The notes below the pieces were generated by a model that saw only the letters and a list, made by a program, of their open reading frames with translations, ran no database searches and was not told the DNA's origin. The translations under genes were made by a program, and so were the position numbers. Shown here in pieces: positions 3,975-28,543 of a DNA stretch of 64,000 nucleotides. How positions within the stretch are numbered: the first letter of the stretch is position 1; each line of letters begins with the position of its first letter. Source of the DNA: an uncultured Gammaproteobacteria bacterium (GTDB lineage Bacteria; Patescibacteriota; Microgenomatia; CAZETR01; Amesbacteraceae); contig CAZFGX010000001.1 of the NCBI GenBank assembly GCA_964518565.1, positions 798,568 through 862,567 on the forward strand. The letters run 5' to 3'.

Positions 3975-4007
<33 letters not shown>

Positions 4008-4124
4008 CGTAGGTTCATAGCTACCCGGCGCTGCATCTGACGACACAACCGGCACACCAGCGGAACCTCCAACCCGGTCCTCTCGTACTAAGGTCGGACC
4101 CCCTCAAGAACTCACGACTCTACT

Positions 4125-4173
<49 letters not shown>

Positions 4174-4241
4174 CTTTTAACCGGCGAACAGCCGGACCCT
4201 TGGAAGGTACTGCCCCTCCAGGATAGGATGAGCCGACATCG

Positions 4242-5409: not shown

Positions 5410-6890
5410 CACCCGACAAGGAACTTCGCTACCATAGAACAGTTATAGTTACTGCTGCCGTTCACTCGAGCTTCATTTCAACGCCTTGCGACGCATCCAC
5501 TTAACTTACGAGCACTGGGCAGGTCTCAGCCTGTATACCGCCACTTTCGTGTTCGCACAGACCTGTGTTTTAGTTAAACAGTCGGGAAATACTCTTTTGT
5601 TGTAACCTCGCTTACGCGAGGCAGGACATCTTGCATAGCTTACGTCCAGCTTTTTTGCCGAGTTCCTTGAACTACCTTCTCCCGATCGCCTTGGTCTTCT
5701 CGACCATCCCACCTGTGTCGGATTACGGTACGGCAAAATATATATCTCACTACGAATCTTTTCTCGAAAGCAAAAACTGCTTACATTGCCAAGTCAATTG
5801 CTCAAATTGGCTTTACATCACCGCTCAATTAAACGTCAATCCGGATTTTCCAGGATCAACTATTTTACGGCTTATACGTGCATTCACTGCACACGCGTAA
5901 GACTTCTCACTTTGTCCATCCCTAGCTGATAACGATATATATCTTGTAGTCGAATATTAACGACTCGTCCATCGGTTACGCCCACTACGGCCTCACCTTA
6001 GGTGCCGACTAACCCCCCGCCAAACAATGGTGCGGAGGAACCCTTGGGAATTCGGCGTGGATGATTCTCACATCCATCACGCTACTCATTCCGGCATACT
6101 CACTTGAGATCGCTCCAGCCCGCTTCACAGCAAACCTTCACTGCAATCTCAACGCTCCCTTACCACTCCCTTTCGCACGAATGCGAAAGAAAATCTGTAT
6201 CTTCGGCAGAATGCTTAAGCCTCGGTTCATTTTCCGCGCCAAACTCCCAATACTCGACCAGTGAGCTGTTACGCTTTCTTTAAAGGATGGCTGCTTCTGA
6301 GCCAACCTCCTGGCTGTCTGAGGAGTTCAACTGCGTTACACACTGAGCATTCATTTAGAGGCCTTAGATGACAGTCTGGGTTGTTTCCCTTTAGAGCGAC
6401 GCGCTTAGCCGCGCCGTTCTGACTCCCACACGGGTGACGAACACGAATTCGAAGTTTGACTGAGGGCCACAACTTGCGCTGCAACACCCAACCAGTGCTC
6501 TACCTCATGTTCGATACGTGTAGGGCTATACCTGTATATATTTCAGGGAGAGCCAGCTATCTCCTGGTTCGATTGGCATATTACCCCTAACCACAAGTCA
6601 TCTCATAACTTTGCAACGTTAACGAGTGCGGGCCTCCCCCCACCTTTCGGAGGGGTTCACCCTGCTCATGGTTAGCTCACCAGGTTTCGGGTCTTCCAGC
6701 ATGTGCTTTTTTTCGCCCTGTTAAGACTCGCTTTCGCTCCGCCTCCCCCCACTTGTGGGGTTAGACTCGCGCATGCCGAAAACTCGCCGGATCATTCTTC
6801 AATAGGCACGCCATCACCCCATATTGCTACGAGGCTCTGACTGTTTGACAGCAGACAATTTCAGTATCTATTTCACTGGGCGTCCCGCCC

Positions 6891-6931
<41 letters not shown>

Positions 6932-7514
6932 GGATAAGAGTATTTAGCCTTGGAGTGTGGTCACCCCGGATTCCCACAAGATCGTATTTCTCATGGTACT
7001 TGGGTATCCAATAGCATTGCGACACATTTCAGATACGAGACTATCACTCTCTTTGGTCAACATTTCCATGTTGTTCTCTTATCTGTCACAAATTACATAT
7101 TATGGACCCCGCAACCCCCAAGTCTTGCGACTGGGTTTAGGCTGTTCCGCGTTCGCTCGCCGCTTACTAACGGAATCTCGTTGATTTATTTTCCTGCCCC
7201 TACTTAGATGTTTCAGTTCGGAGCGTTCCCTTCCTCGCCAAAGGCGTAGGATCCTCATAAAGAGGAGGTTTCCCTATTCGGACACCGCCGGATCAAAGCT
7301 TCTTAGCAGCTCCCCGACGACTTTCGTGGCTATGTACGTCCTTCTTCGGCTCATTATCCCCTAGGCATTCATTGTCTGCTTTACGGAAGTAAAACATACG
7401 GCTCTACTAATTCAATTCTCTTCACTTTTAAAAGAACAAGACTCATCAAGTCAGCCGTAAAAGCTGATATCAATCCTGAAAATATTTCAAAACTGATATC
7501 AATTTTTAACGAGT

Positions 7515-7793: not shown

Positions 7794-9209
7794 ATGCCCC
7801 CTCAAGAACACGTAAAACCCGTATACCCCTTGATCACCATAGCCTCAGCGACCGTCTTTCTCATCAGCCTTCTCCTCTTCACTCCAAAGTCTTCCCCCCA
7901 ACCTCAACCCCAAACAACGCCCAAACAAACCCAATACCAGCTATTTCTCACCAGAATACCCAGTCCATTAGAAAAAATCACCATCGACAACCTGCCATCC
8001 ACAGAAGATCCCTACGATACGCTCAAATACCAAAATCGACTCATCTTTAGTGCCCAGGGTCATATCGTCGATTATGATCCAAATTTACGCCAAATCCTCC
8101 ATTATTCAGACCGTACCATCGCCAGATGTCTACGCGAGAAAGTAATTGTTAGTCATTATCTCTATGTCCCCTGCGACGAAGCTCCCACCTACCCCACAGA
8201 TTATGGTGACCAAACTCTGTGGCAGATCGACCTGACAGATTTTTCTGTCGCCAAAGTATATTCCCAAGCGAGCGGGCTTAATTCAGCCAGCAACCTCTTA
8301 CCAGTAGCCGATGGGGACACAATTTGGCTAGGTTCTTTTGACGGCTTGTCAAAATTTGATACCAAAACTGAAAAATTTACCACCCTTACCCCTCAACTGG
8401 GAATTTTTGGCACCCACATCCAGGTAAATAAAATCTTAGTCGACGATTCTCATGTCTGGTTTTACATCCCAGCTAATGCCTACTCGTCAGGTGGTATCAC
8501 GCTGTTTGACAAGAAAACTAACATCTTTACTCCGTTCAACTTTCAAACATTTGTCTCACCTCAATATGGCAGATTCGATCTAAATCAATGGAAACTTACT
8601 CCGGACGGCCTCTTGATTGCTTACTCAGACGATCGTATCTACAAAGAACAACTCTACAATTATCAAACAAACCAATGGCAATCAGTGAGATCTGAAAATT
8701 TTGATAACTACGAAAAAAATATCTCAAGATTTAAAACAGAAAACAGTCTCACAGTTCCGTACGACGACCCTCGTAGTTATTTGGCGCTTTCACCTACTAT
8801 AAATAACCAGCGTTTCGCTCTAACCAATAAAACGATAGATCTCATTACTCCCAATGATCCTTTTCCCATAATCCAACTAAAATTTCCCGAAGATCTGACA
8901 AATATTAGACCCAGTTATAACGCCAAAGACGGCATACTTTTTTACATTGACCCAGAAACCGAACTCGCGATCGTCATTGCAAATGTCGAATCTGGATATG
9001 GCGAACTACCTAGCCAAATGTACATAGTCGACTTGAAACAAAACACGATTCTCAAAAATACCTCCCTCTCCAGTGAAAAGTTTCCCTATTACACAATGAT
9101 TAATGCCCACGCAGAAAAAATAAACGACCAATATCAAATATTCAACGACACCAACACCTCACCATTTCTTGTCATAGACACCAAAACATTTGAATACAAT
9201 TTCAAATAG
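7794..9209 (+). CDS. hypothetical membrane-anchored/secreted protein
   Basis: 471-aa ORF, N-terminal hydrophobic anchor, Pro/Gln-rich spacer; no recognisable catalytic motif. Confidence 0.45.
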   Translation: MPPQEHVKPVYPLITIASATVFLISLLLFTPKSSPQPQPQTTPKQTQYQLFLTRIPSPLEKITIDNLPSTEDPYDTLKYQNRLIFSAQGHIVDYDPNLRQILHYSDRTIARCLREKVIVSHYLYVPCDEAPTYPTDYGDQTLWQIDLTDFSVAKVYSQASGLNSASNLLPVADGDTIWLGSFDGLSKFDTKTEKFTTLTPQLGIFGTHIQVNKILVDDSHVWFYIPANAYSSGGITLFDKKTNIFTPFNFQTFVSPQYGRFDLNQWKLTPDGLLIAYSDDRIYKEQLYNYQTNQWQSVRSENFDNYEKNISRFKTENSLTVPYDDPRSYLALSPTINNQRFALTNKTIDLITPNDPFPIIQLKFPEDLTNIRPSYNAKDGILFYIDPETELAIVIANVESGYGELPSQMYIVDLKQNTILKNTSLSSEKFPYYTMINAHAEKINDQYQIFNDTNTSPFLVIDTKTFEYNFK

Positions 9210-9210
9210 C

Positions 9211-10410
9211 TTACTCGTACCGCAACGCCACGATTGGATCCAATTTTGATGCCCGCAAAGCTGGTGTAAATCCAGCCGTAATGCCGACCGCACAAGAGAT
9301 ACCAAAGGCCAGCGCCACTGCCTGAGCTGTTACTGCTGTTTCAATGAATCTCGAAACCAGTGCCGCCAGTCCCCAACCCAATCCAATACCGATCAAACCT
9401 CCAAGTGCCGACAGCACAATAGCCTCAATCAAAAATTGCAACAAAATATCTCTTCGCTTCGCCCCTAATGCTTTTCGTAGTCCAATCTCACGCGTGCGTT
9501 CAGTCACCGACACCAACATGATATTGGCAATTCCGACTCCCCCCACCACCAAAGAAATAGCTGCAATACCAGCCAACGCTGCAGTAATTGTGCCCAAAAA
9601 TGTCTGGATTGTCTCCAAAATTTGCGTGGGTTTTAAGACGGTAAAGTCATCGTCTGTTAAACTCCGACGGTAAAAGTATTGTTTTATTTGCTCGACTGCG
9701 CGATCTACTTCCAGTGGTCCAGTAGCTTTGACCGTAATACTCCCGGGCGACTTCTCACCCAATAGTTGTCGCGCAGTCGTAGTTGGCATATACACCAAAG
9801 AGTCTTGGTCTCCTCCGCCAAACCCTCCACCTACTTTTTTCAGTACCCCAATAACCGTAAACTTTCTATTTGAAATTACGATTTGCTTTCCCAACACATC
9901 TGTTTCTTTTATCAATTTTTCTGGTATTGCTGACCCGACCACGACCACTGGCAATGCCCGCTCTTCTTGAGAGGCAGTAAACCAGCGACCACTAGATAAA
10001 TCAATATTTCTTAACGCCGGCAAATTTGCCCCAGCCCCATCAATAGATATATCCAAAGTCTCCCGTTTATACTCAGCCAGTCCAGATTTAAAAATCGACG
10101 CTGTTGCTCCAGCAATTGCTCCACCACGCCGATCCAAATTGGCCACATCTTCAAAAGTAAATTTCGGACTAAACGCTGTCGGCCTACCGCCACCACCTCG
10201 TAAATTCACTCGACCTGGCTGCACAAATACCACTTCCGATCCCAAGCTTTGAAATTGTTTTGTCACAAATGCCTGCAAACCTGCACCAATTGCCGTCAGG
10301 GCAATCACGCTCGCCACACCAATCACAATACCCAAAGTAGTCAAAACCGAACGCGACTTATTCGTTCGTATAGCCAATACAGCACTTCTAAATAATTCTA
10401 ATAAATCCAT
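9211..10410 (-). CDS. ABC transporter permease, FtsX/MacB family
   Basis: N-terminal TM, large periplasmic loop, C-terminal FtsX-type 3-TM bundle; the likely start is MDLLEL (10410), not the track start at 10482 that overlaps the ATPase. Confidence 0.75.
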   Translation of the reverse strand: MDLLELFRSAVLAIRTNKSRSVLTTLGIVIGVASVIALTAIGAGLQAFVTKQFQSLGSEVVFVQPGRVNLRGGGGRPTAFSPKFTFEDVANLDRRGGAIAGATASIFKSGLAEYKRETLDISIDGAGANLPALRNIDLSSGRWFTASQEERALPVVVVGSAIPEKLIKETDVLGKQIVISNRKFTVIGVLKKVGGGFGGGDQDSLVYMPTTTARQLLGEKSPGSITVKATGPLEVDRAVEQIKQYFYRRSLTDDDFTVLKPTQILETIQTFLGTITAALAGIAAISLVVGGVGIANIMLVSVTERTREIGLRKALGAKRRDILLQFLIEAIVLSALGGLIGIGLGWGLAALVSRFIETAVTAQAVALAFGISCAVGITAGFTPALRASKLDPIVALRYE

Positions 10411-12114: not shown

Positions 12115-14280
12115 TTGCAAATTCGTCACAACGTATCTACACTTTATCGAGTAGGCATGAAAACATTATTCCTGTTTTCGATTATCACAGTTGTTACGCT
12201 TCTATTTCTTGCTCCTCAAAAAACCCTAGCCAGATCAAGCCCATTTCGTAAAACTATCGCCCTTGAACTAGACACGCTATGCAATCGCCCGCAACGCGCT
12301 TCTTTCCCTGCCGGGGCAGTTCCCGGCCAATATGTTTACCCACTCACCCAACGCGACATAAACTACATAAAAGATCTCGGAGCATCGTTAGTTATTATCC
12401 AAGGCGGTCCAGCTCTTTGGGCCAATGTTGCCAAAACTGATCCATATGCAAATAATCAAAATCCCGCCAATTGGAACAATACCAATTACAATTGGGAACC
12501 TCTAGATCGAGCTCTGGGCTTACTTCAGTTAAATAATATTGAACCCATCATCCAATCCTTTGGTACTCCATCATGGGCCAATGGCATTTATACCGATTCA
12601 TCTCTAGATTCAGATAATTGTTTTGATCTTCTGGACAACGGCCCCATTCTTCCCACTGCCCATAGCGGGCTTACTGAATATGCCAATTTTATGCAAGCCG
12701 TCGCCACGCGTTACGACGGGACCCATGCACCAAACCCATATCGCTTGGGAGGCTTTATCAGGGTAAACCGTTACATCCTCTGGAACGAACCCAATTATCA
12801 AGATTTCTGGACCGAAATTCGCAACGGTTTTCGTGTTCAAGATGTCGCTCAAGATTCAAGTTTAATAAACAAATTTGTCACCTTAAACAACCAAGCGTAC
12901 AACATGATCAAAGATGTAAATGCTTCCTCAATAATTTACGGCGGTGCTATCTGTGGCCATTGTGAAGGATTTACTTGGCTCAAATCGGCCTACAATGCCG
13001 GACTCAAGCTAGATGCCATTGCTGCCCATCCGTATCCCATTGATTACAATGTCAGTCCTTCAAATCAAACTCCTACCTCCACTCAGCTTTCTACAAACAA
13101 CATTCAAGCCTTAAAAAATCTTGTGGATAGTCTGCCAAATTGGGCAAACAAACCTATCTTCATGTCCGAATCAGGCTACAGAACCCACGAAGGTAAATTG
13201 TTTCCTAACGCTCAAGCAAACGAAGGACCATGGTTGTCTGAGATCTTCAGCATCTCCAAAGCCGTCCCGACCAATTATGGCTGGACCCAATTTTTACTTT
13301 ACCCAGAATCAAATTGGGGCACTGGACTAGTCTCAGATACTGGATCTGAAGCTTCCGATATTCGCTATCCTTCCTATTCAGTCTTCAAATCCACAGCTGA
13401 AATTTACCCCATGGACATGAACAACGACAAAATCATCAATTACAAAGATAATGTTCTTTTCATAAACGAAATTGGCCAATCCAACTCACTACTCAAAGAT
13501 CAAGCCGATCTAAACTCCGATGGCAAAATAAATTCTCTAGATTTCGCCCTCTCTACCAAAAACCGCAACGCCGATTTCCCCTTAACTGTTTCCCTGCCAG
13601 CCAAAGTTCCACTACCCATTAGATACGACGAAGTCACTATTTACCCCGACGGCAAACAAATACTTATTTATGGTTCAAATATGTGGGAAAGACCCAATCT
13701 ATCTACCACCTTCTGGTCAAGTGGACCGTTAGAAACCATATTTTTAGGTCAAAATGCTCCAGTCAGACTACCCAACACTCATATCGATAGCTACTCCGTC
13801 ATCCCTGATGGTGAAAATGCCGGAAGCATCACAGTCACAAGTGACAATCGTCGCTGGTATCGTAACAAACACGAACTCACCTGGACCACCTCCACCCTCA
13901 GCGAGCTTTGGACTGGACACACATCCAACTATCCTCTACCTATCAATGTCATTGAATCAAATACCATTATTCCTGCCGGACTCCCGACTGCTGGTGGTCA
14001 GTTAATTACTTCCGGAAACCGATATTGGTGGCGCAACTCCCAAACGAGCACCAGTTGGACGAGTGGCACATTAGCGGAATTATTCACTGGCCACTCTTCT
14101 TCCACTCCCTTACCCACTACCAAAATAGATGCAGTTATCACTTTTCCATCAAACTCACCTTATCCTGGTTGGCAATTTGTTTATTCAAGCGACCGCTACT
14201 GGTACCGTACCAATCTAAATTCCACCAGTTGGACCACAAATACTATTACCAACTCACTATCAGGCCACCAAGTCTACTAA
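12115..14280 (+). CDS. secreted glycoside hydrolase (clan GH-A TIM barrel, GH5/GH39-like) with dockerin module and three C-terminal ~60-aa repeats
   Basis: Signal peptide. ILWNEPNY (acid/base NEP motif) and IFMSESGY (nucleophile Glu). Dockerin Ca-loops DMNNDKIINYKD and DLNSDGKINSLD lie ~31 aa apart. Three RYW(Y/W)RN...SWT repeats follow. Confidence 0.75.
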   Translation: MQIRHNVSTLYRVGMKTLFLFSIITVVTLLFLAPQKTLARSSPFRKTIALELDTLCNRPQRASFPAGAVPGQYVYPLTQRDINYIKDLGASLVIIQGGPALWANVAKTDPYANNQNPANWNNTNYNWEPLDRALGLLQLNNIEPIIQSFGTPSWANGIYTDSSLDSDNCFDLLDNGPILPTAHSGLTEYANFMQAVATRYDGTHAPNPYRLGGFIRVNRYILWNEPNYQDFWTEIRNGFRVQDVAQDSSLINKFVTLNNQAYNMIKDVNASSIIYGGAICGHCEGFTWLKSAYNAGLKLDAIAAHPYPIDYNVSPSNQTPTSTQLSTNNIQALKNLVDSLPNWANKPIFMSESGYRTHEGKLFPNAQANEGPWLSEIFSISKAVPTNYGWTQFLLYPESNWGTGLVSDTGSEASDIRYPSYSVFKSTAEIYPMDMNNDKIINYKDNVLFINEIGQSNSLLKDQADLNSDGKINSLDFALSTKNRNADFPLTVSLPAKVPLPIRYDEVTIYPDGKQILIYGSNMWERPNLSTTFWSSGPLETIFLGQNAPVRLPNTHIDSYSVIPDGENAGSITVTSDNRRWYRNKHELTWTTSTLSELWTGHTSNYPLPINVIESNTIIPAGLPTAGGQLITSGNRYWWRNSQTSTSWTSGTLAELFTGHSSSTPLPTTKIDAVITFPSNSPYPGWQFVYSSDRYWYRTNLNSTSWTTNTITNSLSGHQVY

Positions 14281-14286
14281 ACACAT

Positions 14287-16479
14287 ATGATCAAATCACT
14301 CATCATTATCGGCGTACTAGCTACCACTCTCATCGTTGGTCTAAATTTAGCCAACAGAACTCAACGCATAAATTCAGAAGCAAGCAGTTTCAACACTCGC
14401 CTTTCATTACCAGCGACTTCTACCGCCACAGTAAACCAAACACTATCTCTGCCTGTTATGTTAAATACTGGCACAGCTCAAATCAGAGGCGCGGACGTGG
14501 TGCTTCAATACGACAAAACCAAACTCTCACTCAAATCTATCACTCCCAGTCTCTCTTCATCTTCTTTTACGTATCTACCGATAAACACTTCACATCTATT
14601 TGATATCAACAAAATTCTCCAACAAAGTAGTATTTCCGGCAACAATCAGACAATTGAATTTAACCTGGCCACTACTTCCATAGATAATCCTCAACCCACA
14701 ACCTTCTCCACGAACAACCAACCTATCCAAATTGCTATTCTCACATTCGATACTCTTAGCACTGGCAATACTCAAGTCTCTCTTATCAAAAATGGCGCTT
14801 CAACTACAGATAGTAATATCGCCCAAGCTGACAGTGGCCTAGATATTTTAGATTTTGTAGATAATAGTCTTGTTACAATTTCATCTCCCTCCACTTCCAC
14901 ACCCATTCCACCAACCGCGACAAAAACTCCATCAAACTCACCTACACTACCACCATCACCCACACCCACTCTCACACTCACCCCCACGCCTACACCCAAT
15001 CCGATCGGTTACCTAGACGATGCCACTTGTGCCACAATTTATGGCTGGTCATGTGATCCAAACTATAAAAATATTTCTGCCACAGTAACGATCAAAATCG
15101 ACGGCATTCCTCTCACACTTGTTACCGCCAACCAAACCCGGACAGACTTAAGTTCAGTATGTGGCAACACGACAAATCACGGATTCTCAATAAATACTCC
15201 AGCTTCAGTTTTTGACGGTCAATCTCACACTGTTACGGCCAGCAGCTCAATAAACGGTTATGTTAAAAATCTTACTGGTTCCAAAACCTTACGCTGTGTA
15301 ATCGCCACCGTCACCCCACGTCCATCCCCTACGCCTACAATTCGTCCCTCAATCACACCCACCCCCTCGCCCACCCCCACACCGATACCCACATCAACGC
15401 CCAAGCCTACTGCTACCAAAACCCCCACACCTATCCCTTCCACCACCACCTTCCCTCCAACACTCACTCCTGTCCCCACCACAATTCCCACAGCCACCGC
15501 TATACCCACTCCTATTCCAGATGGCTGGACTCGCTGTGCCACAGAAAACAATTTCTGCGCCTTTACCGGCACAGCTCAAGTCCGCTATGGCTTATTTGGA
15601 GCATATAACTATGGCGTCTTCACCAACGGCGTCCAATGTGCCAATTCTGTTTTCGGCGATCCTTTCGTCGGCTTTATAAAATATTGCGACTACCAATTAA
15701 TATCCACTCCCACACCTACCAAACCTCCCGTGGCCACCTCTACACCAAAGCCCACCACACCTCCTCAATCCACTAGCACCCCCAAACCCACCACACCTCC
15801 AGCCCCCACCTCTACACCTACTCCATCTTCCGATTGGATATATTGTGCCCAAGAACGCGAATTCTGTTCCTTTACAGGAACTGCAGAAATTCGCTATGGC
15901 ACACTCGGCAGTTACAATTACGGCACGTATACAAACGGTGTGGAGTGCAGCAATTCTGTTTTTGGCGACCCTTTCTGGGGTTTACGCAAACATTGTGATT
16001 ACCGCGTAATTACACCCGCTCCTGTTCCCACCCCCACTCTCCCAATCCTAAACAACGTCTTTAACATCTTTTACAACAATCTAGATTCCTCATGGCAAAA
16101 CTGGTCCTGGGATACCAATGTTCAAATTACCGATATTATTTCTACCACCTCAAACTCAAACAACGCTGGATTATATTTACGTAACCGTAACCCTCTACCT
16201 ACCAGCCAATATCAATATCTAAAATTCGATCTCAAAGCCAAACAACTACCCACCACAATTCGCATATTTGCATATGGTCAAAATTCCAACCCGCCTCTAA
16301 ATTCAGGCCTAGACATTAGTTCATACGGAACGATATCCACCCAAAATTTCATTACATTCAAAATTCCCCTATCCCAACTCAATGCAAACCAAACGGTATA
16401 TGGATTTTCATTCCAAATTTACGGCACATCTTCTTCAGGGAAAACAGTTTACCTAGACGATATTGTGTTATCAAACTAA
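14287..16479 (+). CDS. secreted multi-domain protein: cohesin-like module, PT linker, two Cys-rich ~58-aa repeats, conserved C-terminal domain
   Basis: Residues ~48-200 (LSLPVMLNTGTAQIRGADVVLQYDKTKLSL ... IAILTFDTLSTGNTQVSL ... LVTIS) follow the cohesin beta-sandwich pattern. Repeats GWTRCATENNFCAFTGTAQVRYG... and DWIYCAQEREFCSFTGTAEIRYG... are present. The C-terminus holds the shared W-x-W/LYLR/IDDI domain. Confidence 0.6.
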   Translation: MIKSLIIIGVLATTLIVGLNLANRTQRINSEASSFNTRLSLPATSTATVNQTLSLPVMLNTGTAQIRGADVVLQYDKTKLSLKSITPSLSSSSFTYLPINTSHLFDINKILQQSSISGNNQTIEFNLATTSIDNPQPTTFSTNNQPIQIAILTFDTLSTGNTQVSLIKNGASTTDSNIAQADSGLDILDFVDNSLVTISSPSTSTPIPPTATKTPSNSPTLPPSPTPTLTLTPTPTPNPIGYLDDATCATIYGWSCDPNYKNISATVTIKIDGIPLTLVTANQTRTDLSSVCGNTTNHGFSINTPASVFDGQSHTVTASSSINGYVKNLTGSKTLRCVIATVTPRPSPTPTIRPSITPTPSPTPTPIPTSTPKPTATKTPTPIPSTTTFPPTLTPVPTTIPTATAIPTPIPDGWTRCATENNFCAFTGTAQVRYGLFGAYNYGVFTNGVQCANSVFGDPFVGFIKYCDYQLISTPTPTKPPVATSTPKPTTPPQSTSTPKPTTPPAPTSTPTPSSDWIYCAQEREFCSFTGTAEIRYGTLGSYNYGTYTNGVECSNSVFGDPFWGLRKHCDYRVITPAPVPTPTLPILNNVFNIFYNNLDSSWQNWSWDTNVQITDIISTTSNSNNAGLYLRNRNPLPTSQYQYLKFDLKAKQLPTTIRIFAYGQNSNPPLNSGLDISSYGTISTQNFITFKIPLSQLNANQTVYGFSFQIYGTSSSGKTVYLDDIVLSN

Positions 16480-16511
16480 ATACTTTACTATAATAAAGTA
16501 CCAATCAAGTC

Positions 16512-18635
16512 ATGCATCCACATAAAAAAATCGCTCATCTTTCACTTCTGGTTATTCTCTCCGCTATTATTGCCACCGCTGCCATTATCCGCAATATCCA
16601 TCCACAAAAAGTCTACGCTGCTACCCCAATAGACGACTCCCCCGTCACCAAAAATGTTCTTGTCTTAAATTTTAATCCTATTATAGAAAGCCAAGGTGGT
16701 CAAAGGTTAACTCAACTCAAAAATTGGTCTGATCCACATGCCATTACCACCCAAATCGTAAACGCTTTTCCATCCATTAGCCATGGATATTTATCTATAA
16801 ATGTGACTGAATTCCAGGATTTAGACCAAATCTTTCCGCTCATTGACGGCTACCAATACACTGACGACACATTGCTTACCTGTCTATCAAACACCTCCAC
16901 CTGTCACAATCCCCAGGGTACTGACTACGCTCGAATGTTTACCGACTTCAATATTTGCTCCAAAAATGTCGACGAAATCTGGCTCTGGGGCGGACCATAT
17001 TTTGGCTATGAAGAGTTTAAACCCGTAAATTATTGTGGCAAAACCCAATTTGTCATGGGCTTTAGTTATGAACGTATGTTTGATGAAGCCATTCATGATT
17101 TTGGCCACCGGATGGAATTTGTAGGCAACAATCGTGTGGGTGATGGCAACTGGCAACAAAACGAGTCAAATGCCTGGAATCGCTATTCACTTATCGCCAA
17201 TCATTGTGGCAATGTTCACTATCCTCCAGGTTCTTCAATTCCCCAAGACGAATACATCTACAACAAGTCAGCGTCAGTCAGTTCAGATTGTGACGGGTAT
17301 CTCAACTATCCAGATGGGCCATTCACTCAAACGTCACTCACCTGTAGTGCATGGGGCTGTACCCAGGGTGGCTACGTCCAATGGTGGCTCTCACACATCC
17401 CTGCTAAAACTGGTCAAACTGTTGTCAACAACAAAACCATTTACAACAATTGGTGGAAATACTATGCCTTTTACGACGAGACATATGCTCCAACCCCCAC
17501 AAACACCGCAGGTCAATTTACCAACCTAAATGCGACATTAGAACCAAACAAATCCACTTTCAACTTTGCCTATTCTTCAGCCGCCAGCTCATATCGCATA
17601 GACATGTCTATCAGCGCAGACATGGTGTCTGGCACCTATTTATCATTTGGCCAGGGCACTAGCTCACCCATAGTGGTAAACGATCCCACCAAATGGGCTT
17701 CATACACCTGTGGCACACAATTTTGGTGGCGAGTTGTAACGCCTGAAAACTATATGAGTCCAATACAAACAGCGACAGTAGTCTGTAACAACGTCACCCC
17801 AACCACCACTCCCACTATTGGCCAATATACCAATCTCAGCTCCAGCCTTATTGCTACTCAAGCAACATTCAACTTCAACTACTCAGCCACCGCCAGTGCC
17901 TATCGAGTTGATATGTCCATCACTCCCGACATGTCATCGGGCACCTATCTCACCTTTGGTCAAGGCACATCTTCACCAATCATCGTTACCAATCCCACCA
18001 AATGGGCTTCATACACCTGTGGCACACAATTTTGGTGGCGTGTTATCGGATCTGACAGTTCTCAAAGCGCCATCCAACCCGCAGTGGTCAATTGTTCTAT
18101 CCCTACATCCACCCCGACCCCAATTCCCCCAACTCCCACAAACACTCCGCTTCCCACATCTACGCCCAAACCCACCCCTACACCCATCCCTCCTACTCCC
18201 ACACCAATTAAACCATTAGTTATTTATAGCAATAGTCTGACAGCTCCATGGCAAAATGCCAGCTACGGTGGCTCTACCACCTTCGGTTCAAACATCAAAT
18301 TCGTCTCCACTCAATCAGGTGGTCGAATGTATCTCAGATCTACCACTGCCATCTCTGCTCTGCCCTACAACTTCATCAAATTCTCTCTCAAAGGCAGTAC
18401 TCCAAATCTAAACATTCGTCTCCATGGTTACGGAATTAGTACTTCTACACCCATGGCAACCTACGGATTAACTTCAGCCAAGGGCTCACCGAGCAATTCC
18501 TCCTTTACGTCATACACAGTCGACTTAGCCAAAATAGACCCCACCGATGCCAACATCTACGGTATCGCATTTGAATTATATGGTTCCTCTGTAGGCAAAA
18601 CCCTCTATATAGACGACATCTCTCTGACGAAGTAA
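16512..18635 (+). CDS. secreted multi-domain protein of unknown function with two tandem ~100-aa repeats and conserved C-terminal domain
   Basis: Signal peptide; internal duplicated module (...KWASYTCGTQFWWRV...) encoded with a 47-bp perfect DNA repeat; PT linker; C-terminal shared domain. Confidence 0.6.
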   Translation: MHPHKKIAHLSLLVILSAIIATAAIIRNIHPQKVYAATPIDDSPVTKNVLVLNFNPIIESQGGQRLTQLKNWSDPHAITTQIVNAFPSISHGYLSINVTEFQDLDQIFPLIDGYQYTDDTLLTCLSNTSTCHNPQGTDYARMFTDFNICSKNVDEIWLWGGPYFGYEEFKPVNYCGKTQFVMGFSYERMFDEAIHDFGHRMEFVGNNRVGDGNWQQNESNAWNRYSLIANHCGNVHYPPGSSIPQDEYIYNKSASVSSDCDGYLNYPDGPFTQTSLTCSAWGCTQGGYVQWWLSHIPAKTGQTVVNNKTIYNNWWKYYAFYDETYAPTPTNTAGQFTNLNATLEPNKSTFNFAYSSAASSYRIDMSISADMVSGTYLSFGQGTSSPIVVNDPTKWASYTCGTQFWWRVVTPENYMSPIQTATVVCNNVTPTTTPTIGQYTNLSSSLIATQATFNFNYSATASAYRVDMSITPDMSSGTYLTFGQGTSSPIIVTNPTKWASYTCGTQFWWRVIGSDSSQSAIQPAVVNCSIPTSTPTPIPPTPTNTPLPTSTPKPTPTPIPPTPTPIKPLVIYSNSLTAPWQNASYGGSTTFGSNIKFVSTQSGGRMYLRSTTAISALPYNFIKFSLKGSTPNLNIRLHGYGISTSTPMATYGLTSAKGSPSNSSFTSYTVDLAKIDPTDANIYGIAFELYGSSVGKTLYIDDISLTK

Positions 18636-18663
18636 CCTAAATACGGTATAATTTGTGAGTCCC

Positions 18664-18698
18664 GGGTGCGTAGTTCAATGGTAGCCCGCTTTCTTGAT
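18664..18698 (+). pseudogene. truncated tRNA-like fragment (5' 35 nt resembling downstream tRNA-Ile)
   Basis: GGGTGCGTAGTTCAATGGTAGCCCGCTTTCTTGAT matches the first 35 nt of tRNA-Ile at 18789 with 4 mismatches, but no T-arm or acceptor 3' strand follows; hairpin-rich spacer after it. Confidence 0.35.
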
Positions 18699-18788
18699 CA
18701 CGAAGCCGCTTGCGGCGAAGGGATAGAAAAAATTCTCTCGTAAAGAATTTTTGATATAAGAAAGAGGGACACAGAACATTTTAAATTT

Positions 18789-18863
18789 GGGTGCGTAGTT
18801 CAGTGGTAGAACGCTTTCCTGATAAGAAAGAGGTCCATGGTTCGATTCCATGCGCACCCACCA
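18789..18863 (+). tRNA. tRNA-Ile (anticodon GAU), CCA encoded
   Basis: GGGTGCG/CGCACCC acceptor, GTTC/GAAC D-stem, CTTTC-CTGATAA-GAAAG anticodon arm, GGTTCGATTCC T-arm, terminal CCA. Confidence 0.85.
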
Positions 18864-18912
18864 AAAATCTCCTTGACGAATAAAAAAATTTTATGCTACG
18901 CTAGATGTAGAC

Positions 18913-19470
18913 ATGAAAAAACTGAAAAATAAATCAGACATTATAAAAACTTCAGTTGCCGTCATCGCTTCTTCATTTGCAGTAGTTCTTGCCACATCTC
19001 AACACTCAGTTTCTTACAACGCCAAAGCCGCAATTGAACCTACCCCTCTATATACGATTTTCAAAGATAGTCTAGCCAGTGGTTGGGAAAATTGGTCCTG
19101 GGGTGGCAAAGCCACTATTACCGATTACATTACATTTGTGACGACCTCCAACAACGGTGGTCTCTATTTACGCAGTAAAACTGCAGTCAACATGAGCCCA
19201 TTTGTTAGCCTACGTTTTTCTCTGAATGCGTCAAATTCAGAAAACATGATAAAAATATATTTTTACGGCGCAGACAAATCTACTCCGCTTAATCCCAAAG
19301 GGGAATACATTCTTCCTTATCGAGTATCTGGATCACAATACAACTACACTCTTCCACTATCTATGATGCACCTACCCAGCAACCCAAGTGTGTATGGTTT
19401 CTCACTCCAGTTTTATGGCTCAAATAGTAACAACAAAGAGCTTCGAATCGACGACATCTATTTGAAATAG
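18913..19470 (+). CDS. small secreted protein consisting essentially of one copy of the locus-specific conserved domain
   Basis: 185 aa, signal/anchor, then WENWSW...GLYLRS...YGFSLQFYG...IDDIYLK. Confidence 0.6.
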   Translation: MKKLKNKSDIIKTSVAVIASSFAVVLATSQHSVSYNAKAAIEPTPLYTIFKDSLASGWENWSWGGKATITDYITFVTTSNNGGLYLRSKTAVNMSPFVSLRFSLNASNSENMIKIYFYGADKSTPLNPKGEYILPYRVSGSQYNYTLPLSMMHLPSNPSVYGFSLQFYGSNSNNKELRIDDIYLK

Positions 19471-19499
19471 ATCCTAGTTTTCTGGTACAAATAATTAGC

Positions 19500-22400
19500 A
19501 TGAAATTTTTCCGTACAGTTTTTAGCACCAGCCTCTTACTGGTGATTTTCTCTCTAACCGCCCCAATTCATTCACATGCCGCATATGGCCTCCAAAGTAT
19601 CACCAATCTCGGTGGCACACCAGTCCAAATGGTTTTTGCTCCCGATGGCCGTTTATTTTTCACCGACAAGTGCGTAGGTCTCAAGGTTCGCAGTACCAGT
19701 GGCACTGTCAGCACATTTAGAAATTTTTCCAATCGTTGTGATTCAGAAAAAGGCGTCTTAGGTGTAGAACTCGATCCTGAATTTGGCAAAAGCACGGGCA
19801 ACGACTGGATTTATGTGTATTACTCTGTAGACATCAACAATAACGTAGCTGTTCGTTTTAAAACTGGCTCAGATAGTCTACAAACCTTAATTAGCATTCC
19901 TACTGGTAGTGCCGGCAATCACAACGGTGGTGCTATTCACTTCGGCACAGATGGCAAACTCTATATCTCCTCTGGCGATGGCCATCAATTTTCCCCCGCT
20001 CAAAACACCGGTAGTTTACTCGGAAAAATTATTCGTATAAATAAAGATGGCAGCATTCCTTCAGATAATCCATTTGGTAACGCTGTATGGGCATATGGAT
20101 TTAGAAATCCCTTCACGTTTGCCGTCAATAAATCCAACGGCAAGATATATGTCAACGATGTGGGTGAAGGTGCAGTCGAAGAAATAGATCAGCTCACCAA
20201 AGGTGCCAATTACGGTTGGCCTACCTGTGAAGGCAATTGTAGCAACTCCGGCATGACCAACCCCATAGCTCAGTATTATCATGCTGGCGCTGGCGGTCGT
20301 AGCAGCCCTGATGGTGAATCCATTACTGGTGGAGCTTTTTGGAACGGCAAATACTTCTTTAGCGATTACGCTGGCAATTGGGGTGGCACGTATACCAATG
20401 GCTGGATCGGCGTCCGCAATGAGTCCACTGGCTCGGTTCAAATCCAAATCCTAGGATACAACATGCCCGTAGCCATGGCAGTCAATCCAGTCGACAACCA
20501 GCTCTATGTCGTAGGGTTAGATGGCCAACTCTCCCGCATTACCGACACAGATGCCCCACCTCCAGCTGCCACCAACACACCACCAGTAATGACCAACACT
20601 CCCATTCCTGCTCCCAATCAACCCCCAGCACTCGTCATAAATTCTCCATCATCATCATTTAAGTATGCCGGTGGTGATACAGTGGTTGCTCTCGCCACAG
20701 CGACTGATCCAGAAGATGGCACCTTACCCGGCACCAGTATTCAGTGGAAAGTCGACTTTTACCACTACAATGTTTCACCTACAAATTTCCACGTCCATCC
20801 GTATCTAGACTGGTCACTCATTCCCAAAGGCAACACTGCCACCATTGAAATATCTCGAATCAACGAATACGTTTCCACTGTTTGGTATAGAATCACAGCC
20901 CGAGCCACAGATTCCAAAGGCGCCACCACCGAAAAATATGTCGATATTTATCCAGTCGTCGTTCCATTGACTGTTTCTTCAAATCCACCCGGACTTCAAG
21001 TCACCATCAACGGCCAACAACAACTCACTCCATATAGTACAGATACCGTAGCTGGGATTATTTACAACATCGCCACCCCAAATGCCCAAACCCTCAACAA
21101 CACTGCCTACTCCTTCACGTCTTGGAGCGATAATAGTACATCTCTCTCTCGCACCTACACTATACCCAGGACTCCCGTCCAGCTCGTCGCTCAATATCTA
21201 GCCGCACCTCAAACCACTATTACTCCACTTCCCACAATCACACCACTTCCAACAAACACCCCCATTCCACCAACCAATACCACATATTTAGGTCTAAATA
21301 CGATTGGCGATTTTTTTGATAGATACAACACTGGCTATCAAACCGGCTCTTCAATCATCACGGGCACCGGCAATCCAGTCATAAACAAAGTCAGCGCCTA
21401 TATAGGCGATATTGAGGCAGCACCCAACAACCAATATCAAGTCGCGATTTATTCAGATCAAGATAACAATCCTGGCACCCAAATCGCCAAAAGCACCCCC
21501 AGCACACTCAATGCCAACGCCTGGAACACCATCGATCTCTCAGCCCCTCTCCAACCTCAAACCAAATACTGGCTACTCTACAGCACCAATTCAAATGCTC
21601 CAGACAAAAACAATCTCAAATACAAACTATCCTCATCTGGAGCCGGACTATTTACGCTCCGATCTGCAGCCTTTGGCTCCTGGGGCACAAATCTGGCTAG
21701 TATCAAAACCCCCGCTCAGTACTCTCTCTATGCCTGGATTACCGGATCCACCCCACCCACAAACACCAACACACCTATCCCTACAAATACCAACGCACCC
21801 AACCCTACAACTCCACCAAATCCGACCACTCCTCCGTCTACTTCAAGCACAAATGTCTATACCGACAATCTATCATCCGGCTGGCAAGCATGGACCTGGA
21901 ACGGTACTGCTAACACCAGTTCAGTCAACCAATTTGGCAACAATTCTATTTCCCTGACACCTTACAATACCGATTCTGGTCTCTATCTACGCAAAACATC
22001 TGGTTCACCGATTTCTGGCTCCACATACAAATATCTCGAATTTAGTATGAAATCCGGACCTTCCAATCCACTAAATATCCGCGTTATGGCTTACGGCTCA
22101 AGTACAAATCCTCCATTTAGCAATGGTGTCTGGGTATCTAGCTATGGTGGCAAACCACCCACCGGCAACTATCAAAATTATCGTATCCCCTTAGCCGATC
22201 TTTCAGCTGCTGGCAAAGATATCTACGGCATTGCCTTCCAAGAACTCAACGATCCATCAGCCATCTTCTTTATAGATAATATTCGCTTCACCCAAAGTTC
22301 TACTTCTGGAGTAATTTACGACAATTCCATTGCCAACGATTGGCAGATCTGGAATTGGGGCGGCACCATCAACGGCGCCTCACTAAACCAATTTGGCAAC

Positions 22401-22760
22401 AACTCCATATCTCTCACTCCCTCAGGGGCTGATGCAGGCATCTATCTTCGCAAGGTAGGCAATGGCGGCTTTTCTACTAGTGGCTTCAAATATCTAAAAT
22501 TTATGGCCAAATCCGGCCCACCAGATCCAGTAAACATGCGCATTCTTGTTTACGGCTCAAACGCCAATCCGCCACTCAATGCGGGCAAGCTCTTGACCAA
22601 CTACGGCGGCAATCCTCCCACTGACACATACAAGACATATCTTATCCCCTTGTCTGATCTTGGAGCTGAAAATATCGATCTCTATGGCGTCGGATTCCAA
22701 ATCCAAGACAGTTCTCCATCCATCATATTTGTCGATGAAGTCAGTCTGGTAAACCAATAA
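19500..22760 (+). CDS. secreted PQQ-dependent sugar dehydrogenase-like beta-propeller (YliI/GSDH family) fused to PT linkers, a central domain and two tandem copies of the conserved C-terminal domain
   Basis: Signal peptide; NHNGGAIHFGTDGKLYISSGDGH, LGKIIRINKDGSIPSDNPF, WAYGFRNPF and ANYGWPTCEG match soluble glucose/sorbosone dehydrogenase hallmarks; two C-terminal domain copies (about 21853-22293 and 22310-22757). Confidence 0.75.
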   Translation: MKFFRTVFSTSLLLVIFSLTAPIHSHAAYGLQSITNLGGTPVQMVFAPDGRLFFTDKCVGLKVRSTSGTVSTFRNFSNRCDSEKGVLGVELDPEFGKSTGNDWIYVYYSVDINNNVAVRFKTGSDSLQTLISIPTGSAGNHNGGAIHFGTDGKLYISSGDGHQFSPAQNTGSLLGKIIRINKDGSIPSDNPFGNAVWAYGFRNPFTFAVNKSNGKIYVNDVGEGAVEEIDQLTKGANYGWPTCEGNCSNSGMTNPIAQYYHAGAGGRSSPDGESITGGAFWNGKYFFSDYAGNWGGTYTNGWIGVRNESTGSVQIQILGYNMPVAMAVNPVDNQLYVVGLDGQLSRITDTDAPPPAATNTPPVMTNTPIPAPNQPPALVINSPSSSFKYAGGDTVVALATATDPEDGTLPGTSIQWKVDFYHYNVSPTNFHVHPYLDWSLIPKGNTATIEISRINEYVSTVWYRITARATDSKGATTEKYVDIYPVVVPLTVSSNPPGLQVTINGQQQLTPYSTDTVAGIIYNIATPNAQTLNNTAYSFTSWSDNSTSLSRTYTIPRTPVQLVAQYLAAPQTTITPLPTITPLPTNTPIPPTNTTYLGLNTIGDFFDRYNTGYQTGSSIITGTGNPVINKVSAYIGDIEAAPNNQYQVAIYSDQDNNPGTQIAKSTPSTLNANAWNTIDLSAPLQPQTKYWLLYSTNSNAPDKNNLKYKLSSSGAGLFTLRSAAFGSWGTNLASIKTPAQYSLYAWITGSTPPTNTNTPIPTNTNAPNPTTPPNPTTPPSTSSTNVYTDNLSSGWQAWTWNGTANTSSVNQFGNNSISLTPYNTDSGLYLRKTSGSPISGSTYKYLEFSMKSGPSNPLNIRVMAYGSSTNPPFSNGVWVSSYGGKPPTGNYQNYRIPLADLSAAGKDIYGIAFQELNDPSAIFFIDNIRFTQSSTSGVIYDNSIANDWQIWNWGGTINGASLNQFGNNSISLTPSGADAGIYLRKVGNGGFSTSGFKYLKFMAKSGPPDPVNMRILVYGSNANPPLNAGKLLTNYGGNPPTDTYKTYLIPLSDLGAENIDLYGVGFQIQDSSPSIIFVDEVSLVNQ

Positions 22761-23881: not shown

Positions 23882-26647
23882 TCAATTTCCAATTGCAGGA
23901 GGAAGCGTAACTCGAGGAGTTCCCCCTCCTCCGACATTATCAGCCCGATTATTTGTCACAATATAAAGGTTTTCAAAAATATCTTTTATATCCAGACCCC
24001 AAGGGGTTGTAATAAGTGCCACCTGTCGCTGTTCGATCCCAAAACCATACAAACTTTGGAACTCATTAGCCACCCGACCATCAGGCCCCTGCTCTGTCAC
24101 AATTGCATACGCATCAATATACTTATCATCTACAACGTAAGCCCCATAATCAATAAACGCTCGAGCTAAAATCTTTCCCGGTATTGTTCGTAAACCATTG
24201 ACATTGAAATCTGGTTTTAATGCCAGCAAGGCACCAGGTGTAAAATTGGGATTAGAACCACGATACGCATCCGTCCCACCACCTCCACAATATCCATCAA
24301 CTCTGTTAGCCGGCCAACGCGCCTGACAACCACTCCAATAATATTGAGATGCCAATAAATTAACTTTCATAACATGGCTTATCTTTCCAGAACTAAACTC
24401 TCCTAAACGAATAGTTCCACCCAAAGCAGATAATCCAGATCCACCGTGCGAACCGTACAATCCAGCTTGATAAATGTTTTGGTCACCAAAGGCCAACAGT
24501 GTCGTTGCCACACCACCAGCCACACATCGAGTAAATGGTTGATTTTGTTTGACCGTCTGCCCATCAGGCATCAAAAATGATGCCGAATGATTTTGAGTCG
24601 TATTGCCTACCCAATAACTAGCCGGGACCGGCACAGATTGCACAGTTCCTCCTTGTGCAGGGCATCGATCGCCACCTTCAGTCCAACCTGATCCATTGTA
24701 TTTGACATCTATCATCGGCGCAGTTGGTTTCATCACGACAATATCTTCATCAATAGCAAATAATGTACCGGCACCTCGAACAATGTTGGCATCTTGATAA
24801 GAAGCGCCACTTCCAATAGATGTATTCCATGGTGAGTTTGAAGCAAATGGCCATTTAAACTTATCTCTTGTTCCATTTGACAACAAACCAAATGTACCAG
24901 ACATCACTGGTGGGTTGGTAGGTTGAACTGTGGGTATCGATGTAGTCGCAGGTGGAGTAGTAGGTGCTGGATTACCAGAAGCACAATTTCCTTGACCCAA
25001 ATTGTTCACACAAATAGGCAATTTCATTTCAGCGGCATTTTGCATACCGAAATGTCCAGTCAATCCTCCTTTATCAATCGCATGTGAATGAAATGAAATA
25101 ATATGCCAACCGTCGTTTAACTTCCGCGTATCAACTACATAGTCATAGTATCCTCGATCTCCAAAGGGCTGTGGCAAGGGGCTAGCATCTGGAGAAGAGA
25201 CGGTCTGAGCATACCAATAATCCTTGTACCCTTGCTCAATCTTAATTCCTCGATGATGCACAGACCCCGTTCCCTTACTTTTTTGTACTTTTGTTCTTAG
25301 TGTTATATTGCCGCTCACTGTTTTACCCATCAGTTCTAATGGATTTTCCAGCACATTAAATACATATTCAATATCCGTATACCACCCATGGGAATCCATA
25401 TAATCTCGAATTGGCGTAATAGTATTATGATTTGCACTATCATTTTCTCCCCAAGGACCAGTTTTAGCGCCAAACCATATTGCATGATTAATATTTGCTT
25501 GCACAATTTCCCCTGGTATCCTACCAGTAGCCACATCACGCACAGTTTCTTCAGTATGACATTCAGTTCGTTTTTCTTGCGAACCACCACCCTCACCTTG
25601 TACTTGATAAGTCACAAATGTATTTGGAGTCACTCTTCGACGATCTTGATGCGAATTAGCGGATATATTATTAGGCCACATATGCAATGTCATTTCGGGA
25701 TTTTTATTCAACGTATTTTTACTTGTCCCTAGCCCGTTCACCCCTGGCATCACACAAGCAATATCAGCCTGAACATTGGCATTAGAACCATATACTCGAC
25801 CTATTTCAATATTTCTATTAACGATCCAAATTTGGTTCTCGTGGGCATTGGCTACCAGTCCCCACCAGGCTCCACCTGCAGCAATATTTCTCCTACCAGC
25901 CTTTACCTGATCCAAAATAAATTTATTTATTACATCATCAGTATCACTTTTATCCACCTCAACTCCTAGACTTCCTGGTGTCCCTGTAGGAGCCAGTGTA
26001 TGAGTCATGCCTGGCATAGTCGGAGCCGTAGTGTTAGTCGGCCCAGCAGTCGGCAATTGGTTATTTGACGAGCCAGAAGTCGGTGAAGGTACAATCGTAT
26101 TAATAATCGGCTGCAAAACCTTTACATCATCAATCCACACCTTTCCCATGGTATTACCTAAATTCAACGCCAAATTTCCTGCAGCGATCGCTTGAGTCGG
26201 TTTAAACTTCACACTACTTCTACTCCAAGTCGGTGTACTCGTAAAACTCCACGAATTCATGGCATTCACGCCATCTAAAATCCGAGCCGAGCCTTCCAAA
26301 GGCTTTTCCGACCGAATCGCAAAATCTATCGTGTACTCGACTCCAGGCAAAAAATTTATCCCGTCACTCAAGACCACAATATCTTTTGCCAAGAGTCTAG
26401 GACTAGTAATCATCAATTCTGCTACGCCCGCACCCTGTAATGGCTGATTCGACGTAGCGTTAAAAGTCACCGACACATCTGTTGCTTTTTGCAATGTCCA
26501 ATTTGCTAGACCTAATTCGAAAGACGGATTCAAAGCAATATTGGTTTCCCCTGCCGCACCAGAACGCCAACTTCGAAAATAGCGAAAGCCAACCAATGCC
26601 AATACAAGACTCGCCAATGTTAACACCGTCAATAAAAATAATTTCAC
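23882..26647 (-). CDS. large secreted protein with N-terminal CBM4/9-like carbohydrate-binding module; remainder unknown
   Basis: 921 aa; signal anchor; NIALNPSFELGLANW...VWIDDVKV resembles the CBM_4_9 jelly-roll; PT linker; long uncharacterised C-terminal region. Confidence 0.6.
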   Translation of the reverse strand: MKLFLLTVLTLASLVLALVGFRYFRSWRSGAAGETNIALNPSFELGLANWTLQKATDVSVTFNATSNQPLQGAGVAELMITSPRLLAKDIVVLSDGINFLPGVEYTIDFAIRSEKPLEGSARILDGVNAMNSWSFTSTPTWSRSSVKFKPTQAIAAGNLALNLGNTMGKVWIDDVKVLQPIINTIVPSPTSGSSNNQLPTAGPTNTTAPTMPGMTHTLAPTGTPGSLGVEVDKSDTDDVINKFILDQVKAGRRNIAAGGAWWGLVANAHENQIWIVNRNIEIGRVYGSNANVQADIACVMPGVNGLGTSKNTLNKNPEMTLHMWPNNISANSHQDRRRVTPNTFVTYQVQGEGGGSQEKRTECHTEETVRDVATGRIPGEIVQANINHAIWFGAKTGPWGENDSANHNTITPIRDYMDSHGWYTDIEYVFNVLENPLELMGKTVSGNITLRTKVQKSKGTGSVHHRGIKIEQGYKDYWYAQTVSSPDASPLPQPFGDRGYYDYVVDTRKLNDGWHIISFHSHAIDKGGLTGHFGMQNAAEMKLPICVNNLGQGNCASGNPAPTTPPATTSIPTVQPTNPPVMSGTFGLLSNGTRDKFKWPFASNSPWNTSIGSGASYQDANIVRGAGTLFAIDEDIVVMKPTAPMIDVKYNGSGWTEGGDRCPAQGGTVQSVPVPASYWVGNTTQNHSASFLMPDGQTVKQNQPFTRCVAGGVATTLLAFGDQNIYQAGLYGSHGGSGLSALGGTIRLGEFSSGKISHVMKVNLLASQYYWSGCQARWPANRVDGYCGGGGTDAYRGSNPNFTPGALLALKPDFNVNGLRTIPGKILARAFIDYGAYVVDDKYIDAYAIVTEQGPDGRVANEFQSLYGFGIEQRQVALITTPWGLDIKDIFENLYIVTNNRADNVGGGGTPRVTLPPAIGN

Positions 26648-27059: not shown

Positions 27060-28543
<1,484 letters not shown>

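Follow-up and report, generated by a model that had tools for sequence, protein, structure and literature searches.

A gene pair for a dockerin-bearing enzyme and a probable single-cohesin surface protein in a Microgenomates genome

Introduction

Cellulosomes are organised by the docking of cohesins to dockerins, an interaction that also serves widely as a tool in protein engineering. Here we describe two adjacent genes in a 64-kb stretch (hereafter the window) of contig CAZFGX010000001.1, which is 1,001,365 bp long and comes from a genome of ~1.0 Mb. This contig is also present in SRR29476910. The first gene codes for a secreted enzyme that carries a dockerin and the second for a protein of 730 amino acids (aa) that carries one cohesin module. 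The FtsH encoded in the window is 73–78% identical to that of Candidatus Amesbacteria metagenome-assembled genomes, and we assign the host on this basis to the Amesbacteria-like Microgenomates within the candidate phyla radiation (CPR), with a genome of ~1 Mb.

The closest functional analogues of this gene pair are OlpA and OlpC of Clostridium (Acetivibrio) thermocellum (PDB 3ul4 and 4dh2) and the non-cellulosomal cohesin-dockerin modules. OlpA and OlpC are anchored via S-layer homology modules on the Firmicute wall. They have one cohesin per protein, as does the 730-aa protein, and theirs tethers a single dockerin enzyme to the cell surface. The 730-aa protein differs from them in its N-terminal hydrophobic helix, its lectin-like and CBM8-like modules (CBM, carbohydrate-binding module) and its CPR host, and is 12–14% identical to them. 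Non-cellulosomal cohesins and dockerins, which were reportedly surveyed by Peer et al. in 2009 (FEMS Microbiol Lett 291:1), resemble the present pair in their low copy number outside the cellulolytic clostridia and in the diversity of their enzymes (2xdh and 2jh2/2vo8/2w1n are solved examples), with cohesin and dockerin sometimes found on one polypeptide. The present case stands apart from these through a large family of its own in Microgenomates (187 clusters), in which the cohesin has a fixed position just behind an N-terminal hydrophobic segment, and through a recurrent two-gene cassette of dockerin enzyme and cohesin protein.

Classical, CipA-type cellulosomes and minimal cellulosomes (PMC7157769, PMC13487519) share with this locus the fold of the cohesin and a two-loop dockerin resembling type I, together with an arrangement in which a non-catalytic protein would give a docked glycoside hydrolase (GH) a carbohydrate-binding module in trans. 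In contrast to cellulosomes, the window has one cohesin rather than several, CBM8-like modules rather than CBM3 and one dockerin enzyme in place of a cluster of enzyme genes, and the organism is not known as cellulolytic. No CBM3 match was found on the cohesin protein, and the candidate docked enzyme is a divergent member of clan GH-A, not a recognised cellulase. Judging from sequence, the window thus lacks the features that define a cellulosome, namely a multi-cohesin scaffoldin and a CBM3, whereas the features of both module families, cohesin and dockerin, are present. The system is of the non-cellulosomal cohesin-dockerin kind already known, and the two-gene Microgenomates cassette adds a modest new comparative observation. 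We found no paper specifically on cohesin-dockerin pairs in CPR bacteria in the limited literature collection that was searched, which is not proof of novelty.

Results and discussion

A cohesin module in the 730-aa protein

The gene for the 730-aa protein and its parts are listed below in window coordinates.

14287–16479, + strand: gene of the 730-aa protein with one cohesin (open reading frame; identical gene call on an independent Logan contig)
14296–14352, + strand: hydrophobic N-terminal stretch SLIIIGVLATTLIVGLNLA, either a signal anchor or a signal peptide (15/18 residues hydrophobic)
14392–14886, + strand: cohesin module, residues ~36–200 (strands of the structural model and family hidden Markov model, HMM)
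14887–14994, + strand: Pro/Thr-rich linker (translation; direct repeats of Pro/Thr codons)
14995–15306, + strand: Cys-containing domain of ~105 aa, NPIGYLDDATCATIYGWSCD..., residues 237–340 (no match in Pfam or among PDB sequences)
~15307–15480, ~15697–15795 and ~16006–16041, + strand: other Pro/Thr linkers (translation; direct repeats of Pro/Thr codons)
15481–15696 and 15796–16005, + strand: two Cys-rich repeats of ~70 aa (internal repeat, E 2.4e-30)
16042–16476, + strand: C-terminal CBM8-like module (profile A3 against PDB 7t7y)

Residues ~36–200 of this protein almost certainly form a true cohesin module. A first-pass annotation, made from the sequence without database searches, had proposed a cohesin-like module at 14428–14890, i.e., residues 48–201 of the product of the open reading frame at 14287–16479 (+). 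The frame does code for 730 aa, and the proposal is borne out by Pfam on the isolated domain, by a family profile searched against the PDB and by structure prediction. On the isolated domain, a scan that excludes the low-complexity Pro/Thr linkers present in the full protein, Pfam Cohesin (PF00963) scored 27.7 bits (E 3.5e-6, profile positions 4–126 of 139; gathering cut-off 24.1 bits). When 1.84 billion cluster representatives were searched exhaustively with HMMER, 187 relatives were returned at E<=1e-3 (clusters at 50% identity). These are 25–40% identical, and in nearly all of them the domain lies at residues ~40–220, directly behind a hydrophobic segment at the N-terminus. From this family we used an alignment of 37 sequences (A1) as the basis of both the family profile and the structural model. 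Pfam Cohesin matched 31 of the 37, and pre-computed Pfam tables already carry the Cohesin label for several relatives. When searched against the PDB, the A1 profile found 23 sequences at E<1, all except one of which (22/23) were cohesins or scaffoldins, with ScaB of A. cellulolyticus as the best match (E 5.5e-5). Cohesins in the PDB were reached by the family profile alone, with no match for the single domain in phmmer. Similarly, a word-indexed protein search returned nothing with the single cohesin sequence and 12 proteins with the profile. No relative came up when genome contigs were searched with the cohesin region, and NCBIfam gave no match for the three proteins scanned.

The AlphaFold2 model of the module (~165 aa) is nearly all beta with one short helix, and has a mean predicted local distance difference test score (pLDDT) of 93.4 and a predicted template modelling score (pTM) of 0.88. 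When this model was compared with the PDB by Foldseek, all 50 matches listed were cohesins. The best among them was CohA2 of C. acetobutylicum (6kgf, E 1.4e-9), and others included OlpA/OlpC (3ul4, 4dh2), 2xdh of Archaeoglobus fulgidus and the glycosidase cohesins 2jh2/2vo8/2w1n of Clostridium perfringens. Target-normalised template modelling scores for the best listed cohesins were 0.62–0.75, with ~0.70–0.75 for CohA2. An unrelated Ig-like or CBM fold for this segment, which the first-pass annotation had named as the outcome that would overturn its proposal, is rejected on these 50/50 matches, and the observation is confirmed because the predicted fold matches cohesins. Cohesin types I, II and III are told apart by their insertions (helix and beta-flaps) and by how their sequences group. 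Here the A1 profile is nearest to ScaB cohesins of A. cellulolyticus, which are of type II, and the structure is nearest, among the matches listed, to cohesins of type I from C. acetobutylicum and C. cellulolyticum.

Could the module be a cohesin-like beta-sandwich that acts as a structural spacer or a carbohydrate-binding fold, has no dockerin partner and resembles cohesins through a common jelly-roll? Identity to solved cohesins of 11–18% among the Foldseek matches listed, and a PF00963 score of 22.3 bits on the whole 730-aa protein, slightly under the cut-off, speak for such a spacer and against the cohesin assignment. However, sequence profiles independently retrieve cohesins almost exclusively, the structural matches listed contain no CBMs or Ig domains, and co-location with dockerin genes is conserved in the family (see below). 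We therefore regard the spacer as very improbable.

Some details of the initial description need adjusting. Three of the four motifs quoted for the module are present (YDKTKL at residues 74–79, IAILTF at 149–154 and GNTQVSL at 160–166), whereas the fourth, G-x-T-x-x-I/V-P-V, reads NQTLSLPV in the 730-aa protein; homologues do have G at this first-motif position. The module is where it was placed, except that a start at 14428 clips the first beta-strand. The term scaffold was too strong. The family HMM found a single cohesin match (E 6e-48) in the six-frame translation of the window, ruling out a multi-cohesin scaffoldin there. With a single cohesin, the protein is therefore not a scaffoldin in the cellulosomal sense, but rather an anchor or adaptor.

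Modules around the cohesin

From the N-terminus, the 730-aa protein consists of a probable hydrophobic anchor and one cohesin, followed by Pro/Thr linkers, the ~105-aa domain, the pair of Cys repeats that resemble lectins and, at its end, the CBM8-like module. The hydrophobic stretch is 18–19 residues long and has no AxA site nearby. It is present in 136/150 family representatives, often behind a long N-terminal tail, and is probably a membrane anchor. The 730-aa product is a probable single-cohesin, sugar-binding surface protein of the Microgenomates cell. Relatives join the same cohesin to PA14/GLEYA, CBM60, CBM96 or Big_7 modules.

The Cys-rich repeats share an FGDPxxGxxKxC motif with SUEL-type L-rhamnose-binding lectins. 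Searching with phmmer matched them, over a short span only, to 5h4s (~23 residues, E 1.5e-7) and to 2zx0 (E 3.4e-5), and a Pfam scan gave no lectin match.

The C-terminal module is one of five similar copies in the window, from which profile A3 was built. This profile matched PDB 7t7y, the CBM8 structure of Dictyostelium discoideum CelA (PMC9079177), with an E value of 1.3e-7 over nearly the full length (positions 4–141 versus 6–151). In CelA (7t7y/7t7z), as in the window, a Thr/Pro-rich linker precedes the module, although the window modules are divergent in sequence. Binding residues of the Dictyostelium module are W572, W574, Y600 and Q686 (PMC9079177), and W18 and Y45 are invariant in the A3 alignment. 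CBM8 is known from a cellulase, and its ligands are beta-glucans and glucomannan (PMC9079177).

The upstream dockerin enzyme

The upstream gene has the following parts.

12157–14280, + strand: gene for a dockerin-bearing secreted enzyme, 707 aa (ATG at 12157; public gene call agrees)
12289–13401, + strand: clan GH-A (TIM-barrel) hydrolase-like catalytic domain (weak GH39 match; Pfam domains of homologues)
13408–13563, + strand: dockerin module with Ca-binding loops DMNNDKIINYKD and DLNSDGKINSLD (Pfam Dockerin_1, phmmer, AlphaFold2)
13566–14277, + strand: C-terminal region of about four W/T/S-rich repeats of ~58 aa (translation)

The adjoining dockerin enzyme, on which the first-pass annotation relied for its idea of a pair, is real. 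Dockerin_1 (PF00404) scored 30.3 bits on the whole protein and 36.2 bits on the isolated region, against a gathering cut-off of 22.9 bits. Type I dockerins have a segment of ~22 residues in duplicate, each copy with an EF-hand-like Ca loop and then a helix. The two loops here, DMNNDKIINYKD and DLNSDGKINSLD, have D/N at positions 1, 3, 5, 9 and 12 and are spaced 31 residues apart. Among solved type-I dockerins, phmmer matched that of CelS (1daq, E 3.7e-4) with both repeats aligned. These features identify a canonical two-loop, type-I-like dockerin. The dockerin-loop pattern was found only once in the six-frame translation of the window.

Although the mechanical reading frame of the enzyme begins at a TTG at 12115, the ATG at 12157 gives a clean signal peptide, and the N-terminus, MKTLFLFSIITVVTLLFLAPQKTLA, reads as signal-peptide-like. 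The following catalytic region has few detectable homologues, and these carry GH5/GH39 Pfam domains (PF00150, PF01229 and PF11790 in homologues P0163–P0165). The Pfam GH39 match of the enzyme itself is sub-threshold at 15.7 bits. Members of clan GH-A are TIM-barrel enzymes in which the acid/base Glu is part of an N-E-P motif and the nucleophile Glu follows about 100–130 residues further on. In the 707-aa enzyme the corresponding motifs are WNEPN (Glu211) and MSESG (Glu338), and WNEPN and (S/T)E.G are invariant in the alignment of the enzyme with its homologues (A4). From general knowledge of the clan, we take Glu211 to be the acid/base and Glu338 to be the nucleophile. The N-terminal ~400 residues are accordingly read as a divergent clan GH-A hydrolase. 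The C-terminal repeats gave only a sub-threshold match, to DUF7925.

Conservation of the gene pair

The stop of the dockerin gene and the start of the cohesin gene are 6 nucleotides (nt) apart and in the same frame. No terminator-like site was found between the two genes, in a promoter/terminator scan that was overall no richer than for shuffled sequence. We compared the window with the loci of ten other family members, fetched without prior knowledge of their neighbours, giving 11 distinct loci. A dockerin-bearing gene lay directly beside the cohesin gene or genes in nine of these. The index cohesin proteins of the 11 loci have pairwise identities of <=46%, and therefore do not represent one locus sampled repeatedly. 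The dockerin partners were varied, and included a GH43-like protein with a dockerin, a dockerin with GH5, a pectate-lyase-like beta-helix with a dockerin and several unannotated dockerin proteins. At loci with long flanks, dockerin loops were confined to the adjacent gene or to the cohesin protein itself. Since the arrangement recurs in 9 of 11 diverged loci, there is good comparative evidence that the dockerin gene and the cohesin gene make up a conserved functional cassette. The suggestion that a cognate partner is encoded next to the cohesin thus fares well, with one cohesin and one dockerin in the window, 6 nt apart, and a similar layout at nine of the loci. On balance, the neighbouring dockerin is a likely ligand of the cohesin.

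In one related locus (L007), a sortase gene (8791–9477) directly follows the dockerin-cohesin-cohesin genes.

Proposed tethering of the enzyme at the cell surface

We propose that a surface-exposed single-cohesin protein tethers the co-encoded dockerin hydrolase, and assign this explanation as a whole a probability of roughly 60%. The hydrophobic N-terminal helix would hold the cohesin protein in the membrane, with the cohesin close to the membrane and the Pro/Thr linkers projecting the ~105-aa domain, the two lectin-like repeats and the CBM8-like module outward. The upstream gene would be co-transcribed with the cohesin gene, and its product would be a secreted clan GH-A hydrolase whose dockerin plugs into the cohesin. 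Docking would then keep the hydrolase at the cell surface and provide it in trans with the glycan-binding modules of the cohesin protein. Of the five genes from 12157 to 19500, that for the dockerin enzyme is the only one without a CBM8-like module, which fits with the enzyme borrowing its carbohydrate targeting in trans via the cohesin. Here we infer the actual binding, the membrane anchoring, the co-transcription and the glycan target, which may be either an environmental polysaccharide or a host envelope.

A number of points weigh against this proposal. The N-terminal segment of the cohesin protein could be either a signal anchor or a cleaved signal peptide. The dockerin is internal in the 707-aa enzyme rather than terminal. 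Two of the 11 loci, both short contigs with tandem cohesin genes, had no dockerin. An AlphaFold2 model of a fused cohesin-linker-dockerin (pTM 0.64), in which the dockerin formed three helices (pLDDT 74–81), gave no readable interface; Foldseek with this model found cohesins again and nothing more. Finally, other cohesins or dockerins may exist in the rest of the ~1 Mb genome and be the real partners, or the cohesins of this family may bind the dockerins of sister proteins in a form of self-assembly, rather than neighbouring enzymes. Sister-protein binding is possible because 55/150 family representatives (P0005, P0007, P0013, P0014 and others) have dockerin loops of their own, nearly always C-terminal to the cohesin, in an anchor-cohesin-linker-dockerin layout on one polypeptide. 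Relatives with both modules could join head to tail into chains at the surface of the cell.

The last of these points amount to an alternative in which the cohesin is real and has another ligand, whether dockerins encoded elsewhere or a surface self-assembly network, with the adjacency of the two genes reflecting a shared secretome island. The occurrence of both modules on one polypeptide suggests such protein-protein chains, the stretch at 12–23 kb is a cluster of secreted Pro/Thr-linker proteins, and our inspection covered ~6% of the genome. Yet adjacency in 9 of 11 diverged loci, with enzymes of differing type, would be difficult to account for if the genes were not functionally coupled, and the long-flank loci have dockerin loops in the adjacent gene or the cohesin gene alone. 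We consider another ligand quite unlikely, keeping it under consideration because some family members could self-assemble through their own dockerins.

If the pair is functional, its role may instead lie in the attachment of an epibiont to its host or in attack on it, and not in the breakdown of free polysaccharide, with the modules gripping glycans of the host envelope and the docked hydrolase opening the host wall. The taxon, a CPR bacterium with a ~1 Mb genome, is of a kind for which this would be in keeping, as all cultivated members of its group are obligate episymbionts on other microbes, according to a published account (PMC12206443). In addition, PA14/GLEYA modules of the adhesin type accompany the cohesin in relatives, a sortase is encoded beside cohesin genes in one locus, and an adhesin role has been put forward for non-cellulosomal dockerins of Omnitrophota (PMC10066038). 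Pointing the other way, the partners in relatives are of plant- or algal-polysaccharide type (GH5, GH43-like, pectate-lyase-like), an amylase is encoded nearby, and the known origin of CBM8 in a cellulase and its glucan and glucomannan ligands (PMC9079177) do not suggest a host envelope. A role in host attachment or attack seems unlikely to us, though less so than a different ligand.

The tethering explanation can be extended to a widespread two-gene "plug-and-display" cassette in Microgenomates, although this generalisation is tentative and on the doubtful side. Its components would be a single-cohesin protein that is anchored in the membrane and varies in its glycan-binding modules (CBM8-like, lectin-like, PA14, CBM60/96), and an exchangeable dockerin-tagged hydrolase (clan GH-A, GH5, GH43-like, pectate-lyase-like). 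As such, it might be the simplest natural cohesin-dockerin system, arming the surfaces of ultra-small, host-dependent cells to harvest or breach glycans of a host or of the environment, and the relatives with both modules could polymerise. If this is true, the modular display of hydrolases on the surface is an investment that even the most reduced bacteria make, and a system of one cohesin, one dockerin and one enzyme, each of which can be expressed in E. coli, would offer a testable handle on sugar acquisition or host interaction in uncultivated cells. The divergent pair may also have a specificity orthogonal to those of known cohesins and dockerins. For annotation, the gain is a cohesin/CBM surface protein (730 aa) and a dockerin-bearing glycoside hydrolase (707 aa), neither of which is named in the collection searched.

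Neighbouring secreted proteins

The CBM8-like module forms the C-terminal end of four consecutive genes, beginning at 14287, 16512, 18913 and 19500, and occurs twice in the last of these. The three genes downstream of the cohesin gene and the module copies are as follows.

16512–18635, + strand: 707-aa secreted protein ending in a CBM8-like module (nt ~18207–18632)
18913–19470, + strand: 185-aa protein with a signal sequence and a CBM8-like module
19500–22760, + strand: 1086-aa secreted protein with a glucose/sorbosone-dehydrogenase-type beta-propeller (Pfam GSDH, E 4.9e-45) and two CBM8-like modules (residues 783–919 and 939–1084)
16042–16476, 18207–18632, 19033–19467, 21831–22274 and 22299–22757, + strand: the five CBM8-like copies, each ~145 aa

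These copies mark an island of ~11 kb of secreted Pro/Thr-linker proteins. Further downstream, at 23882–26647 (-), the window encodes another secreted, carbohydrate-related protein, of 921 aa and with a CBM_4_9 domain.

Genomic setting

Hallmarks of CPR genomes are found in the window, including a group I intron inside the 23S rRNA gene and unlinked 16S and 23S genes.

3844–7390, 5118–5388 and 27062–28545, - strand: 23S rRNA with a group I intron, and a separate 16S

A distance of ~20 kb separates the 16S gene from the 23S-5S unit, with the cohesin/dockerin island in between. A second group I intron (62.8 bits) is found at 54817–55008 (-), in an ORF-poor (ORF, open reading frame), low-GC stretch, with no tRNA detected around it.

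GC skew is negative in all 2-kb windows of positions 1–64000 (-0.10 to -0.42), independent of gene orientation; the same extreme disparity of G and C between strands has been described for UBA1400 Microgenomates (PMC7143001). The C-rich + strand is the one that bears the Pro/Thr (CCN/ACN) linker genes.

Positions 18664–18705 hold a copy, at 83% identity, of the 5' half of a tRNA-Ile(GAT) gene, with the real tRNA gene at 18789–18863, 125 nt downstream. This partial copy, which neither ARAGORN nor Rfam calls as a tRNA, may be a remnant of rearrangement or integration.

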